Below are positions 3,703 through 57,886 of a stretch of 64,000 nucleotides of DNA, one piece after another. The stretch is from an uncultured Bacilli bacterium. GTDB taxonomy: Bacteria > Bacillota_I > Bacilli_A > RF39 > UBA660. Each line of letters begins with the position of its first letter. Positions within the stretch are counted from its first letter, which is position 1. Below the pieces are notes generated by a model. That model was not told the origin of the DNA. It saw only the letters and a program-made list of their open reading frames with translations, and made no database searches. The position numbers and the translations under genes were made by a program. The stretch spans positions 43,372 to 107,371 of the forward strand of contig CAJTIX010000002.1 in assembly GCA_910576795.1 (NCBI GenBank), read 5' to 3'.

Positions 3703-4077
3703 TTAATGATTATTATTGTTTTCCTTGTTTTTAATTTTTTCCTGTAGTAAGAACTGCTGTATTTCTAACATATCTTCATCTGTAATTTCTCCATTTTTAG
3801 ATAGAGTGACTTCGACATCTCCAAATTTCATAGTTTGTTTTTGCTCGTTGGAATTTTGAATTCTTAAATCTCTTAACATTAAGTCATCAATGGGTACATT
3901 GAAGAATGAAGATATAATAGATAAATCTATAGCATCTGGTTCTCTTATACCTTTTTCCCAATTGCTAATTGTTGTATTTTTTTTATTGCATATAGTCGCA
4001 ACTTCTTCTTGAGTTTTTCCGTTTAAAGTTCTCAAGTATTTTAGGTTGGAAGCCAGATAAATTTTATTATTATCCAT
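3703..4077 (-). CDS. CI-like repressor, HTH_XRE family
   Basis: HTH motif LRTLNGKTQEEVATICNKKNTTISNWEKG; ATG 4077 with GGAGA SD; divergent from cro-like gene. Confidence 0.8.
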   Translation of the reverse strand: MDNNKIYLASNLKYLRTLNGKTQEEVATICNKKNTTISNWEKGIREPDAIDLSIISSFFNVPIDDLMLRDLRIQNSNEQKQTMKFGDVEVTLSKNGEITDEDMLEIQQFLLQEKIKNKENNNNH

Positions 4078-19674: not shown

Positions 19675-19748
19675 GCTCCTATAGTTCAATGGTAGAACAA
19701 CGGTCTCCAAAACCGTATATTTGAGTTCGATTCTTGATGAGAGTGCCA
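19675..19748 (+). tRNA. Phage-encoded tRNA-Trp (anticodon CCA), imperfect acceptor stem
   Basis: Canonical D arm TAGTTCAATGGTAGAAC, anticodon stem-loop ACGGT-CTCCAAA-ACCGT, T-loop TTCGATT; acceptor has G1-U72 wobble and C5/A68 mismatch. Confidence 0.6.
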
Positions 19749-19752
19749 AAAT

Positions 19753-19826
19753 GGCAGGATAGAGTAATGGTAACTTATCAATTTCGTTAGTTGATGATGA
19801 TGGTTCGATTCCATCTCCTGCAACCA
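19753..19826 (+). tRNA. Phage-encoded tRNA-like gene, tentatively Thr (anticodon CGU), atypical
   Basis: T arm GATGG-TTCGATT-CCATC, D loop AATGGTA, CCA end; G1/A72 mismatch and U at position 37. Confidence 0.45.
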
Positions 19827-25672: not shown

Positions 25673-25749
25673 CTAGTAATAGCACAATTTGGTAGTGCAC
25701 TACATTTGGGATGTAGAGGTTGGGGGTTCAAATCCCTCTTACTAGACCA
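25673..25749 (+). tRNA. Phage-encoded tRNA-Pro (anticodon UGG)
   Basis: C1-G72 acceptor CTAGTAA/TTACTAG, D arm GCAC-AATTTGGTA-GTGC, anticodon arm CTACA-TTTGGGA-TGTAG, T-loop TTCAAAT, CCA. Confidence 0.75.
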
Positions 25750-38903: not shown

Positions 38904-39533
38904 ATGAGTAAAATATCATTAGAAAAATTTATTGAAAATACAAAAGGAACACAAGTAGATGTTCCGTGGGAAACAAAAAGTAAATTAAAAGGACAATGTG
39001 TTAGTTTGATTCAACAATATATCTTACAATGCCTAGAACAGCCTGCACAAGCTCGTGGTGATGCGAAAGACTGGATTACTTCATATGTGAACGAGGGACT
39101 AGGTTTCGTTGCTGACAAGCCACGAAAAGGGGATATTTTGGTGTTTCCAAATGATGGTGTTATCAATGGTGTTTCATATGGCCATATTGCAATCTGTGTT
39201 GATGAAAATACATTGTATGATCAAAATAACTTTAGACATGACAATGGATTATGTGGATATGGCCAAATCTTTACTACTGATTACGTAGTATTAAGACCAT
39301 ATGCTGAATTAATAGAAGAAACAAAGCCAGTAGAAACACCAGTTCAAGAGTCAATCGAAGAACAACCACAAGTTGATATCCTGGATTTAGTCCGTAGAAC
39401 CATTCGTGGTGACTTTGGAAATGGACAAGCCCGTAGAGATGCTTTAGGTTCAAACTACGATGAAGTTCAAAGACAAGTTAATTTGAATTTGCAAAATGGA
39501 TTAACTCAATGGGACAACATTAGATTGTTCTAA
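38904..39533 (+). CDS. Endolysin: CHAP domain plus C-terminal CW_7 (Cpl-7-like) cell-wall-binding repeat
   Basis: Catalytic Cys (KGQCVSLIQQY) and His (YGHIAICV) of CHAP; C-terminal VRRTIRGDFGNGQARRDALGSNYDEVQRQVN matches the CW_7 repeat. Confidence 0.8.
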   Translation: MSKISLEKFIENTKGTQVDVPWETKSKLKGQCVSLIQQYILQCLEQPAQARGDAKDWITSYVNEGLGFVADKPRKGDILVFPNDGVINGVSYGHIAICVDENTLYDQNNFRHDNGLCGYGQIFTTDYVVLRPYAELIEETKPVETPVQESIEEQPQVDILDLVRRTIRGDFGNGQARRDALGSNYDEVQRQVNLNLQNGLTQWDNIRLF

Positions 39534-39542
39534 ATAATAAAG

Positions 39543-39569
39543 CCTAGTCGTTTGACTAGGTGTTTTTTT
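39543..39569 (+). terminator. Rho-independent terminator after endolysin
   Basis: cctagtc-gtttg-actagg hairpin plus T9. Confidence 0.7.
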
Positions 39570-39605
39570 GTGCAAAAATATAAATAACTATGTGCAAACA
39601 CTTTT

Positions 39606-39646
39606 TATTTGAAAGCATTGATTTATGTAGATTTATGTCGTATAAT
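39606..39646 (+). promoter_or_regulatory. Putative own promoter of the cargo gene (TTGAAA ... TGTCGTATAAT)
   Basis: ttgaaa and extended -10 tgtcgtataat upstream of 39694. Confidence 0.35.
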
Positions 39647-39693
39647 CATAAAAAGACAGCAGTATTGTCTTACTAATTAATGGAGGGAAGATA

Positions 39694-40518
39694 ATGAAAT
39701 CTAGTGAAAAAATAGTTTCTGCTGTTAATATAGAACAGGCTATAAAAGAGGAATTTGAAATTGCACCAAAAATAGTAAAGCCAAAAGTTATTCAATATAA
39801 TTGTATCTATAGTATGTTATACAATGGTGATTTAATAAAAGGTTTGGTTTTATATAATATTTCAAGTAATCATTATGTTGTAGTGCAAATTTTTGATGAA
39901 GAGAAAACAGACTCTATATATCTTAAAAGCATTGATAAATACATTTTATTTAATCAAGTTTTAGATGTTGCAAGAAAGGAAGTTAACTCTGCTATATATT
40001 CAAAAGGATCAGTTCTTCGTATAAATAATCGAGATCGTAAAATTATTATTAATGGATTAAAAAAGATGTTTATTAAAAACATAAGTAATTTAACAAATCC
40101 GTTTATTCCTGATGATCTTAATTGTTTAAAATGGTTTAATAAAGAATTGGTTTTAAATAAAGAACAAGATCATATATCGGAATTATATCGACAAAGACAG
40201 GTGTGTTGGGTTGATTTTGGTACTAATGTTGGTTCAGAATTACGAAAATTAAGACCAGCAATATTGTGGCGATCTTCAAAGGATAAAAAAATATGGACAG
40301 TTATACCTTTAAGTACAAAGTGCAAACAAGACAATTATTATTTTCATTATGATTTAAATAGTGTAAACGATTGTAGTGCTAAAATAGAATCTATGATGAA
40401 TTTTAGTTATAAAAGAATAGTTAGTCCGTATTACAATAAAAATGTTTTAGCTTATATAAATATTGATGATTATCAAAATATCAGAGCAATTATTAAAAAA
40501 TATTATACATTTTCATAG
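39694..40518 (+). CDS. Fusion protein: N-terminal domain of unknown function plus C-terminal MazF/PemK(Kid)-like toxin domain
   Basis: C-terminal VCWVDFGTNVGSELRKLRPAILW ... TVIPLSTK matches the conserved [IV]W.VDF.P..G.E....RPA.V and v.P.[ST][ST] pattern of MazF/Kid; own promoter and terminator. Confidence 0.6.
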   Translation: MKSSEKIVSAVNIEQAIKEEFEIAPKIVKPKVIQYNCIYSMLYNGDLIKGLVLYNISSNHYVVVQIFDEEKTDSIYLKSIDKYILFNQVLDVARKEVNSAIYSKGSVLRINNRDRKIIINGLKKMFIKNISNLTNPFIPDDLNCLKWFNKELVLNKEQDHISELYRQRQVCWVDFGTNVGSELRKLRPAILWRSSKDKKIWTVIPLSTKCKQDNYYFHYDLNSVNDCSAKIESMMNFSYKRIVSPYYNKNVLAYINIDDYQNIRAIIKKYYTFS

Positions 40519-40655
40519 CAAATATTTAAAAATGTAAATAAAAAATCAATAAATTTGAATATTTATTCAATAAAAAGTTGACAATTTGTTAAAAATAAGA
40601 TAAACTTATATTACATTTAATTGATGCATGTGAAAACATGGAATAGATTTAGTTC

Positions 40656-40682
40656 GAAAAAAGGATTTAATTCCTTTTTTTG
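40656..40682 (+). terminator. Rho-independent terminator
   Basis: aagga-tttaat-tcctt hairpin plus T-run. Confidence 0.55.
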
Positions 40683-40696
40683 CTTACTAATTAATT

Positions 40697-40725
40697 TTGA
40701 CTTACTATTTCAAATATGTTATAAT
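40697..40725 (+). promoter_or_regulatory. Consensus sigma-A promoter TTGACT-17-TATAAT
   Basis: Perfect -35 / 17-nt spacer / perfect -10. Confidence 0.7.
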
Positions 40726-40731
40726 TTGAAT

Positions 40732-40896
40732 GTAATATGAACCGCGAGGTTTTGAGACCATTTTTATTTGGCAGCGATGCCGTGAGCTTTAAACAAAGAC
40801 CCATAGCGGTCCGAAAGTTGTTATTTGACCCATAGCGGTCCGTTTTTGCTGATCAGTCGTTGATGAGCTAAAATTCCAACTAACAGTTGGTTTTTT
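40732..40896 (+). ncRNA. Candidate structured small RNA (about 160 nt) with GNRA hairpins and two GACCCATAGCGGTCCG repeats
   Basis: Bounded by consensus promoter and hairpin+T6 terminator (40876-40896); locally GC-rich; hairpins AACC-GCGA-GGTT (40740-40751) and GGCA-GCGA-TGCC (40770-40781); 16-nt repeats at 40798-40813 and 40827-40842; only ORF is 31 codons without SD. Confidence 0.5.
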
Positions 40897-41074
40897 ATTT
40901 TTCTCTTAACAATTCAAAGAAACGATCAGAATACTCTTGTTGCATTTCAATTGCTTTTATAAATTGTGCCTTAGTTTCATCGTTATTAAATCTTGAATGT
41001 GCTATTCTGCATTTTCTTACTAGATCATTGATTACATCCAAAACATTCTTTTTGTATAATTCTATAATTGACAT
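40895..41074 (-). CDS. Small helical protein (59 aa)
   Basis: ATG with AGGTGA SD; convergent with the sRNA and shares the bidirectional terminator hairpin; below track cutoff. Confidence 0.45.
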   Translation of the reverse strand: MSIIELYKKNVLDVINDLVRKCRIAHSRFNNDETKAQFIKAIEMQQEYSDRFFELLREK

Positions 41075-41183
41075 GATATCACCTGTTATTAGTATGTGAA
41101 TGATTTTAAAATGTATAATATTATATAATCAATTTGACAATCAATATTAATCTGTTATAATACCCTTTTCAGGGGATGTTACT

Positions 41184-41342
41184 ATGCAAATACAAATAAT
41201 AACAGATATATCAAAGATAAAACATATTACAAATAAAGAGACTAAAATAGTCTATCTAAAATACAATAAAAAACGCGCATTCTATAGCACGGATTTAGTA
41301 AAATGGTATATGACATCAGTTGAACGTTTAAAAGGGCTATAA
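41184..41342 (+). CDS. Small protein (52 aa)
   Basis: ATG with AGGGGA SD; upstream ttgaca ... tataat promoter at about 41137-41166; below track cutoff. Confidence 0.4.
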   Translation: MQIQIITDISKIKHITNKETKIVYLKYNKKRAFYSTDLVKWYMTSVERLKGL

Positions 41343-42062
41343 GTCCTTTTTATTTATGTAGTTGAGGATGTCTTTTAAATACTTCTCGGAGACTTTATCA
41401 ATAACAATATTGTCTTCTAAATAAATACTTCTATTCTTTTTATCTATTTTTTCAATTAAATCAGTATTAATGACTTTTGATTTAAAACAATACATAAATC
41501 TTTCGTCTAAACTGTTTAAAATTTCTGTCAATGTTCTACTTACTAAAACATCACTCGATTTGGTTACAATTTTGCATTGTCTATCATTATAGTCAATATA
41601 AATAATTTTATTGATTTGCAATTGAATATAAGCTTCTCGAGTGTTAATTCTTAAAATACGTTTTCTAACTTTTGGCAGTATTAAATATCGTAATTCTTCT
41701 TTTAATTGTTCCATCCAATCTTTTTCCTCTTTATGAATAAATTTTGAGAACATAATTTTCTCTGAAAGTAATTGGTCTTGATATTCGACTTTATGACTTG
41801 TTATAATAATTATAGGGCAATCGGAACCAAGTTTTCTAATTTTATTTGCTATTTGTATACCGTTCAGCGTTGAAAGTTCTATGTCCAAAATATAAATTTT
41901 GTAAAAGTCATCAGATTTGATATTCTTTTCTAATTCATCATTATAATCATAAAATCTACTGATCTTGTATTTTAATTTGTTTTGAATTTGAAAAGAGTTG
42001 ATAATCTTATAAATCTGTTCATTAAATTGTTTATTATCTTCTACTATTATTATTTCAAACAT
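41337..42062 (-). CDS. Orphan LytTR-family response regulator (AgrA/ComE-like)
   Basis: N-terminal receiver (IIVEDN ... YILDIEL phospho-Asp region) and C-terminal LytTR DNA-binding domain; no histidine kinase nearby. Confidence 0.75.
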   Translation of the reverse strand: MFEIIIVEDNKQFNEQIYKIINSFQIQNKLKYKISRFYDYNDELEKNIKSDDFYKIYILDIELSTLNGIQIANKIRKLGSDCPIIIITSHKVEYQDQLLSEKIMFSKFIHKEEKDWMEQLKEELRYLILPKVRKRILRINTREAYIQLQINKIIYIDYNDRQCKIVTKSSDVLVSRTLTEILNSLDERFMYCFKSKVINTDLIEKIDKKNRSIYLEDNIVIDKVSEKYLKDILNYINKKDL

Positions 42063-42272: not shown

Positions 42273-42292
42273 CGAACTGGGGCAGCCAAATA
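42273..42292. repeat. attR core: second copy of 20-bp direct repeat
   Basis: Exact match to 1321-1340; followed by a host-type terminator hairpin accgttg-taaat-caatggt plus T-run. Confidence 0.8.
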
Positions 42293-53309: not shown

Positions 53310-53973
53310 TTTATATATTGATGAATCAGGTAATTTAGGATCTGGAATGGGAAGATATTTTTTAATTTGTGCTTTGGATATAGAATCTAGCGTAAAATCG
53401 ACTATTATAAAAAGAGCTGGTAGAACGATATGCCGATTCAAACAGAAAAAACATATTTTGAAGACAGAAGAGTTAAAAGGATGGAATTTAAATAGGGAAG
53501 ATAGAATAGATTTAATCGAACGGATTTTGTTTAAGGGTGTAAGGGTGAGATATATTGTATTAGATTTAAAGCAAACTACGATGTTATTGTCTAAACCTGA
53601 TGATAAAAATGCTTGTTTTAATTATTTGATTCAGTTAATTGTGAAACAAATTATGAAGGAATATCCACATGTCGATAAAATAAATTTATATTTAGATAAT
53701 CGATCTGTTAAAATTGGAAATCGTTTATCTTTAAAGCCTTATTTATATAATAAATTAATATTGGAACAATTAGAAACTCATTCCAATGTAAAACGAGTTG
53801 AGTTTAATATTACTTATTTAGAATCAGAAAGTTGTTATTTGATACAGTGGGCTGATATTATTGCAAATTCAATATATAAAGCATATAATGGTAATAATTA
53901 TGAATTTTATAATAAGATAAAACCTTATATTATTTTTGAAAGTAAATTTCCAACTAGAAATTTTGGAAAGTAG
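53296..53973 (+). CDS. DUF3800-family protein
   Basis: N-terminal VNLYIDESGNLG signature. Confidence 0.55.
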   Translation: MKEVNLYIDESGNLGSGMGRYFLICALDIESSVKSTIIKRAGRTICRFKQKKHILKTEELKGWNLNREDRIDLIERILFKGVRVRYIVLDLKQTTMLLSKPDDKNACFNYLIQLIVKQIMKEYPHVDKINLYLDNRSVKIGNRLSLKPYLYNKLILEQLETHSNVKRVEFNITYLESESCYLIQWADIIANSIYKAYNGNNYEFYNKIKPYIIFESKFPTRNFGK

Positions 53974-56845: not shown

Positions 56846-57389
56846 TTACTTATTAGTACACGGAAGTTTTGGAAGCCCATTTTCTAATTGGATTCCATAT
56901 TTAAGAAAAGAAATAGAAAATAAAAGTCTAGAGGTTTATACTCCAGATTTTCCGACAGGAGTAGGTTACCAAAATTATGAAAACTGGTCTAAACTTTTAA
57001 AAACTTATGTAGAAGCAAATATCATAAATGAAAATACTATTATATTTGCTCATTCTATTGCACCTATTTTCATCTGCAAATTTCTAGTTGAGAATAAACT
57101 AAAGGTAAAAAGATTAGTTTTTGTTTGTGGATTTAACAATTATCTTGGAATCAATGAAGATTATGACACAGTGAATGAAAGTATGTATTTTGATAATTTG
57201 GTTGGTGTTAGAAAATATTGTGATGATATCGTTTGTTTCTATTCGGATAATGATCCATATGTGAAGTATGAAGCTGAAAAAGAATTTGCTGATACTATAA
57301 CTGAAAATCAAATTATGGTGTCTGGAGGAGGACATCTAAATTCTGAAAGTGGTTATACTGAATTTAATGACTTACTAAAATACATATAA
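56835..57389 (+). CDS. Small alpha/beta serine hydrolase (YdeN/RBBP9-like)
   Basis: LLVHGSFGSPFSNW N-terminus and FAHSIAP nucleophile-elbow-like segment; 11-bp overlap with upstream gene. Confidence 0.5.
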   Translation: MKSNYLLVHGSFGSPFSNWIPYLRKEIENKSLEVYTPDFPTGVGYQNYENWSKLLKTYVEANIINENTIIFAHSIAPIFICKFLVENKLKVKRLVFVCGFNNYLGINEDYDTVNESMYFDNLVGVRKYCDDIVCFYSDNDPYVKYEAEKEFADTITENQIMVSGGGHLNSESGYTEFNDLLKYI

Positions 57390-57421
57390 AACAAAGGCAA
57401 TGCCCAAACTGGCATTGCCTT

Positions 57422-57886
57422 TTAACAACTTTTTTCACGATATTTAACAGTTGACTTTCCACATAGCCAATCCATGGAAATATTGTACTTTTGGCATATT
57501 TGATAGGCAAAGGCAGTTAATATCAATGTTTTACCTGTTTCATATGCAGATATAGTAGAGAAGGTAGTATTTAGCTCATTTGCTAATGTACGAAGTGTCA
57601 AACTATTTTCTTCTCTAATTTCTTTCAAACGTTTACCAATTTCTGTTTTATTCAAATTTTTAACTTCAACTATAGAATTATTAATTTTTTGATTAGATAA
57701 ACCTAGTGAATAATCCATACTAACATTATAGATATTACATACAGTGTTCAGGTGCTTTAAAGGAATAATTTTTGTCCCATTTTCCCAAACGGAATAGGTT
57801 TGTTGGCTAATACCAATTTTTTCAGCAATATCCTTTTGATATAAGTTATTTAACTCTCTTAAGTCTAATAGTCTTTTCGTATTCAT
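57422..57886 (-). CDS. XRE-family regulator with two HTH domains
   Basis: Two HTH_XRE repeats; ATG 57886 with AGGTGA SD. Confidence 0.6.
   Translation of the reverse strand: MNTKRLLDLRELNNLYQKDIAEKIGISQQTYSVWENGTKIIPLKHLNTVCNIYNVSMDYSLGLSNQKINNSIVEVKNLNKTEIGKRLKEIREENSLTLRTLANELNTTFSTISAYETGKTLILTAFAYQICQKYNISMDWLCGKSTVKYREKSC

Follow-up and report, generated by a model that had tools for sequence, protein, structure and literature searches.

A lineage-restricted candidate RNA gene at a prophage end, beside a mobile cassette of a PemK-like gene and a conserved small RNA in gut Bacillota

Small transcription units between the endolysin and attR

The window, the whole stretch of 64,000 nucleotides that we analysed from an uncultured Bacilli bacterium, contains a prophage spanning positions 1321-42292. 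The prophage is complete and is integrated at the 3′ end of a tRNA-Gln gene (1261-1336, ARAGORN); its tyrosine integrase gene lies at 1359-2624, and it carries tRNAs of its own, tRNA-Trp and tRNA-Thr (19675-19826) and tRNA-Pro (25673-25749). A gene for a CHAP+CW_7 endolysin (38904-39533) is followed by its terminator (39542-39561). The accessory region from this terminator to attR is made up of small, separately promoted units: the gene of a putative toxin, the unit at 40697-40896 that is the subject of this study (hereafter the prophage-end unit), a 59-aa gene, a 52-aa ORF and the gene of a LytTR regulator. The following features were annotated in this region and at its edge.

39618-39646, + strand: promoter of the toxin gene, TTGATT-17-TATAAT, with a direct repeat of GATTTATGTA (1.9 copies) in its spacer (promoter scan, TRF)
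39694-40518, + strand: gene of a two-domain PemK/MazF-fold protein of 274 aa, a putative RNase toxin (Pfam, E 1.1e-6)
40578-40606, + strand: near-consensus promoter of sRNA-A, TTGACA-17-TAAACT (promoter scan)
40606-40688, + strand: sRNA-A, with leader ACAUUUAAUUG, hairpin 1 CAUGU-GAAA-ACAUG, a linker and a terminator at 40657-40680 (covariance model R1)
40697-40725, + strand: promoter of the prophage-end unit, TTGACT-17-TATAAT with a TG extension (promoter scan; the equivalent in contig L007 is TTGATT-17-TATAAC)
40732-40786, + strand: 5′ module of the prophage-end RNA, with inferred start G40732 and hairpins AACC-GCGA-GGUU and GGCA-GCGA-UGCC (~90% identity to L007)
40787-40848, + strand: genome-specific 3′ part of this RNA, with two 16-mers, each able to form a GACC/GGUC hairpin (no similarity to L007 or other loci)
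40876-40896, + strand: bidirectional intrinsic terminator CCAACU-AAC-AGUUGG followed by U6 (hits on both strands)
40895-41074, − strand: convergent 59-aa gene with SD AGGTGA, whose terminator is common with the prophage-end unit (ORF list; called in the NCBI assembly)
41337-42062, − strand: gene of an orphan LytTR response regulator, the last prophage gene before attR (Pfam Response_reg and LytTR)
42273-42292, + strand: attR core CGAACTGGGGCAGCCAAATA, 20 bp, repeating the tRNA-Gln 3′ end at 1321-1340 (exact repeat search)

The prophage-end unit had been singled out in a preliminary description made from the sequence, and re-inspection recovered every sequence feature listed there, at the same positions. 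The promoter, TTGACT (40697) and TATAAT (40720-40725) separated by 17 nucleotides, matches the consensus at 11 of 12 positions and carries a TG extension. It ranks second among the promoter-like sites found by the promoter scan in 39400-41600; as a class, such sites are not enriched in this AT-rich region (19 observed vs 17.6 expected). Terminator-like sites were enriched in the same scan (7 observed vs 0.4 expected). The hairpin CCAACT-AAC-AGTTGG with its TTTTTT tail (40876-40896) scores as a terminator on both strands and serves both the prophage-end unit and the convergent 59-aa gene, which gave no family match. GC content rises to 0.41-0.44 over 40750-40899, against 0.13-0.25 in the flanks. 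The transcript would probably start at ~40732 and end with the terminator at 40896, a length of ~165 nt, with partial termination possible at ~40848, after the second 16-mer, which is followed by U5 at 40843-40847. Strong expression, also part of the preliminary description, is predicted from promoter quality only.

Two GCGA-tetraloop hairpins are present, AACC-GCGA-GGTT (40740-40751) and GGCA-GCGA-TGCC (40770-40781), and the minimum-energy fold of the 5′ module includes both. There are exactly two copies of the 16-mer GACCCATAGCGGTCCG, 29 nt apart (40798-40813 and 40827-40842); none of 100 shuffled sequences contained two or more matches, even with 3 mismatches tolerated. Thermodynamics alone does not support the description of the RNA as structured, because the stems are only 4 bp long and the z-scores are weak (−1.9 for the whole transcript of 164 nt, −0.3 to −1.1 for sub-domains). 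Fold energies were not significantly better than those of shuffled sequence.

The prophage-end unit is known from this genome (two assemblies) and from one Logan contig, L007, only, so that independent sequences of its RNA number two. The putative toxin of L007 is 72% identical to that of the window. From the sRNA-A promoter to GCCGTGAG (40786) the two loci share ~90% identity; similarity then collapses. L007 keeps both GCGA hairpins identical, with an indel in the linker, and its 3′ part is different, likewise rich in hairpins and equipped with a terminator of its own. Since similarity is lost past GCCGTGAG, the duplication of the 16-mer is unique to this genome. Conservation in related loci, a point raised by the preliminary description, therefore extends to the 5′ ~55 nt, which recur in L007, and not to the part with the 16-mers, which is confined to this genome.

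The only ORF had been reported as lacking an SD and as 31 codons long. We found no SD in the sequence preceding its ATG (ttgaatgtaat), and its length is 32 codons (40737-40835). In L007 an indel shifts the frame past codon 7, so that translation would end after 15 codons, yet the hairpins remain intact at the nucleotide level; the ORF is thus not conserved. That the unit encodes a 32-aa peptide is very improbable on these grounds, although an ATG-initiated ORF does exist. A non-coding unit that extends from promoter to terminator is the best reading of the region.

Rfam (release 15), proposed earlier as a check, assigned 40690-40900 to no family, with no match at gathering score nor at E ≤ 10 with permissive filters. 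A known housekeeping RNA is therefore ruled out. The region had no match among GenBank phages and PLSDB plasmids by blastn or megablast. Five exact matches of the 16-mer in viral contigs were all attributed to chance (contigs of 54-66% GC). The pattern AACCGCGAGGTT-N8-32-GGCAGCGATGCC was absent from viral contigs, and its two matches in metagenome contigs fall within coding sequence from an organism of high GC content and were likewise taken as chance. A tRNA- or att-derived origin of the GC-rich part was considered and rejected: the att core at 42273 lies outside the unit, and ARAGORN finds no tRNA there. A 16-nt exact match, GAAAGTTGTTATTTGA, was noted between the RNA's linker (40813-40828) and a chromosomal ORF (53827-53842; blastn-short E 0.001). 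It is same-sense, hence not a pairing site, and is probably due to chance.

A PemK-like gene and sRNA-A form a mobile cassette

The promoter of the putative toxin gene is separated from the endolysin by the terminator at 39542-39561. The GATTTATGTA repeat in its spacer (39620-39638) is also found in L007 and may be an operator. The encoded protein has a MazF fold: its C-terminal domain matches PF02452, the sole Pfam match, as well as MazF structures, and the loop G-x-E-x-R-K-x-R-P is invariant. There was no PADLOC match and no PDB sequence match at E ≤ 0.01. An extra N-terminal domain of ~150 aa is a beta-barrel, which could act as an in-cis antitoxin or inhibitor, or as a sensor, which would make an RNA antitoxin unnecessary. 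Hundreds of relatives of ~245 aa occur in gut metagenomes, and tblastn revealed none in cultured phages (GenBank) or plasmids (PLSDB).

The prophage-end unit had been placed immediately downstream of this gene. A separate small transcription unit (40578-40688) in fact intervenes. We collected 83 loci with a PemK-like gene from gut Bacillota. In 78 of them the gene is followed directly, on its own strand, by an RNA of ~80 nt, sRNA-A; the remaining five comprise two contig ends, one divergent copy recognised by eye, one weak match and one locus that lacks it. The copy in the window, between the toxin gene and the prophage-end unit, scored 65.6 bits against R1 (E 8.6e-13), and its transcription likely starts at A40613. 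The association with a MazF-like gene pointed out in the preliminary description is thus real at the level of the locus, and the RNA that co-occurs with the gene across unrelated contexts is sRNA-A (40606-40688), not the prophage-end unit.

sRNA-A has a constant architecture: an invariant leader (U)AC(A/U)UU...UGCA, a 6-bp hairpin, the conserved linker UGGAAGUUGUUUUUC and an 11-bp terminator. In alignment A2 (49 distinct sequences), 99.2% of pair cells were standard and 11 of 17 pairs showed compensatory changes, while pairing in slid controls was at most 50%. All 60 distinct copies have a sigma-70 promoter at the same distance (10-12 of 12 positions), with a −10 element that ends 7 nt before the A of ACAUU. 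No Rfam family matched sRNA-A or its relatives, and its leader patterns had no exact match in viral contigs. sRNA-A is a previously unnoticed RNA.

Control of the toxin mRNA by antisense pairing was rejected. The sRNAs lie on the strand of the toxin gene and do not overlap it; sRNA-A has no conserved complementarity of at least 9 nt to the toxin mRNA, and its duplex energy with the toxin 5′UTR was no better than that of random windows in 11 of 12 loci. Since antisense (type I) regulation is unsupported, protein binding is left as the simplest role for sRNA-A.

The pair of toxin gene and sRNA-A was found after prophage lysins, next to a Mob_Pre relaxase on a plasmid-like contig, between Lon and MurE, after a class II tRNA synthetase, between ribosomal protein S9 and ThiF, and between a NUDIX hydrolase and a kinase. 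Neighbours upstream and downstream were unrelated across 10 loci. These contexts indicate that the cassette moves as a unit, without a constant protein partner.

In many loci a second unit, sRNA-B, follows ~110 nt past sRNA-A. It has the same leader and hairpin 1, differs in its second hairpin and terminator, and is picked up weakly by R1 (23-33 bits); it is a paralogue of sRNA-A. Cassettes of the L020 type lack a second RNA, which is therefore dispensable for the cassette. sRNA-B was seen among loci L011-L089, L095 and L096 (for example L046 3830-3909 and L096 2400-2470); its second hairpin and terminator vary between these copies, and L096 is among those with UUCG tetraloops.

Some further observations concern the surroundings of these RNAs. 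R1 gave a weak match in the host chromosome part of the window (57386-57493, − strand; 18.6 bits, E 0.09), probably by chance. On the IMG/VR contig L092, a distant PemK-like homologue is followed after ~240 nt by a skipping-rope RNA (3785-3866, − strand; 54.5 bits), and a DUF3800-I RNA (947-1066, − strand; 77.9 bits) lies upstream. In three prophages, a LytTR regulator or LytTR-only protein is encoded convergently just past the cassette (41337-42062, − strand, in the window; L008 6237-6566; L096 2645-3325); such a gene is absent beside chromosomal copies of the cassette.

The prophage-end unit in the slot of the second RNA

The prophage-end unit fills the slot of sRNA-B and matches it in strand and in its promoter-to-terminator layout. 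Its RNA resembles the sRNA-A/B family in slot, strand and layout, and in having a short leader followed by small hairpins. It differs from the family in having neither the leader ACAUUUAAU, invariant there, nor the UGCA...UGG sequences on either side of hairpin 1. With filters off, the best R1 score on 40689-40920 was 6.2 bits (E 0.26) and covered the terminator tail only, so the RNA is not a member of sRNA-A. R2 gave at most 5.5 bits on the + strand of the unit, and in the window it matched sRNA-A only (23.1 bits). An nhmmer search of the unit likewise found nothing. Since both R1 and R2 fail on this RNA, it is position only that assigns it to the cassette. A reading of the 3′ half as a degenerate sRNA-A/B (hairpin, GAAAGUUGUUAUUU, hairpin, UUUUUGCU) was null with R1, R2 and nhmmer, and we keep it as a lead only.

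Our best explanation, held tentatively, is that the stretch is a lineage-specific second, accessory RNA gene of the toxin and sRNA-A cassette, itself a type III-like module. In this phage lineage the second-RNA slot would be taken by an RNA of another kind, whose 5′ module, with its two GCGA hairpins, is conserved and whose 3′ part varies. That the stretch is a lineage-restricted gene for a small non-coding RNA at a prophage end is in itself plausible.

A rather unlikely alternative is an independent prophage moron sRNA that would base-pair in trans with mRNAs of the host or of competing phages, or titrate a host RNA-binding protein. The strong promoter and terminator of the unit's own fit this reading, as does its place in the accessory region between lysin and attR, beside the small, independently promoted ORF59, ORF52 and LytTR regulator. 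The RNA cannot be recognised as sRNA-A or sRNA-B, and it has no significant pairing with sRNA-A: pairing of its 5′ end as an antisense of the sRNA-A leader was rejected, as the complementary stretches fall mostly before the inferred starts and the z-score was +0.5 relative to shuffles. A moron sRNA would not be expected, however, to sit exactly in the slot and orientation of sRNA-B, nor to accompany the same toxin and sRNA-A again in L007, and no target could be identified within the 64 kb of host sequence.

An 18-nt inverted repeat, ATATTACATTTAATTGAT / ATAATTTGAATGTAATAT, surrounds the two inferred transcription starts (40608-40625 and 40721-40738). ATTACAT is found where each sRNA-A and each sRNA-B unit starts, and is inverted at the prophage-end unit in both the window and L007. 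The repeat could be a site at the DNA level or a chance occurrence in AT-rich DNA.

The abrupt loss of similarity to L007 after GCCGTGAG bears on another reading, in which the unit is a decaying or rearranged remnant of sRNA-B with a breakpoint at ~40787; the duplication of the 16-mer would be recent and functionless, and the remnant may still be transcribed. The 3′ part is unique, and the complete identity of the two 16-mers suggests a recent origin. The promoter spacer of L007 holds AATTACAATTAAT, which resembles an sRNA-B leader (R2 12.7 bits, E 0.07), and the 12-nt linker AAGTTGTTATTT equals the sRNA-A linker of L008, a match that is not significant (E 2.5). The weak fold z-scores point the same way. 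Against decay, two lineages with toxins only 72% identical have retained the near-consensus TG-extended promoter and the two GCGA hairpins intact, and GC content is well above that of the background, which would rarely be seen in decaying DNA when the genome has ~27% GC. We consider a remnant unlikely.

The 16-bp elements might instead act as DNA sites, two GACC-N6-GGTC palindromes bound by a dimeric regulator such as the prophage LytTR protein or a phage repressor. LytTR proteins bind direct repeats of ~9 bp that are ~21 bp apart and lie just upstream of a weak −35 element, as at the sites of AgrA and ComE. The two elements repeat one another exactly in direct orientation and each contains a palindrome, the gene of an orphan LytTR regulator lies 500 bp from them, and a LytTR gene recurs beside the cassette in L008 and L096. 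Those two loci, however, carry the LytTR gene without such repeats; the spacing of the 16-bp elements (29 bp) departs from that of the 9-bp LytTR repeats, and the elements lie inside a predicted transcribed unit rather than upstream of a gene. We regard DNA sites as improbable.

Under the favoured reading, that of an accessory second RNA gene, the cassette would act as a module of protein toxin and RNA antitoxin, similar to type III and without a protein antitoxin. sRNA-A would be made in excess from its own consensus promoter, and would also be carried on read-through transcripts of the toxin gene, as the interval from the toxin stop codon to sRNA-A contains no terminator. Own promoter and read-through together would guarantee an excess of RNA over toxin. 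sRNA-A would then bind the RNase and hold it inactive, and the prophage-end RNA could serve as a second RNase-binding or decoy RNA, or as a modulator of the module.

It is possible, if doubtful, that the cassette stands for a new class of toxin/RNA-antitoxin system, in which a single downstream hairpin RNA, independently transcribed, neutralises an RNase. The invariant UAC(A/U)UU at the 5′ end of this RNA would be a recognition or processing site of the MazF type, and the prophage-end RNA an add-on of the phage lineage, a second decoy or a modulator that tunes toxin release in superinfection.

Comparison with known systems

Taken alone, the prophage-end RNA is one more orphan prophage sRNA candidate. 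The discovery, a well-supported one, is sRNA-A and the cassette that it forms with the toxin gene: a compact and widespread two-part unit without a protein antitoxin, present in prophages, plasmid-like contigs and chromosomes of uncultured gut Bacillota. PADLOC has no model for this cassette, and we found no description of a PemK-plus-sRNA module in the literature.

Regulatory sRNAs encoded in prophage accessory regions include DicF of Qin and AsxR and AgvB of the Stx phages of EHEC. The prophage-end unit shares with them a short, independent, non-coding organisation, a strong promoter, an intrinsic terminator and the location in a prophage accessory region. It has no sequence or structural relation to them in Rfam, and its host is an uncultured, low-GC gut Bacillota.

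With type II MazEF/PemIK (Kis-Kid) systems, the cassette has in common the PF02452 and MazF-structure match and the invariant loop of the C-terminal domain. In contrast to these systems, it has no MazE or PemI gene: the toxin gene has its own promoter after the endolysin terminator, its neighbours vary by locus, no antitoxin ORF lies between the promoter (39618-39646) and the ATG (39694), and what lies upstream is the endolysin gene with its terminator. Lacking MazE, the cassette is not a type II MazEF system.

In type III loci, repeats of 34-45 nt form a tandem array that precedes the toxin gene; a terminator separates the two, and one promoter serves both (PMC3401426). The putative toxin has the Kid/MazF-like endoribonuclease fold that characterises type III toxins (ToxIN, CptIN, TenpIN/AbiQ-antiQ) and is close to CptN, whereas its sequence matches Pfam PemK rather than the ToxN, CptN or TenpN families, and it has the extra N-terminal beta-barrel domain of ~150 aa. 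The layout differs as well: here the RNA is downstream, is single-copy or present as two diverged paralogues at a distance of ~110 nt, and is equipped with a promoter and terminator of its own. TRF detected no tandem array upstream of the toxin gene. Because of this layout, and because the toxin falls outside ToxN/CptN/TenpN, the cassette is not to be filed as type III. It may nevertheless work like type III. Searches based on tandem repeats cannot find such a cassette, a possible reason for its having been overlooked. Should the RNA prove to neutralise the toxin, the RNA antitoxins known for RNase toxins would extend beyond the three tandem-repeat families of type III, canonical PemK/MazF domains could be RNA-controlled, and the cassette would offer a small, portable toxin/RNA pair for studies of phage defence and for biotechnology.
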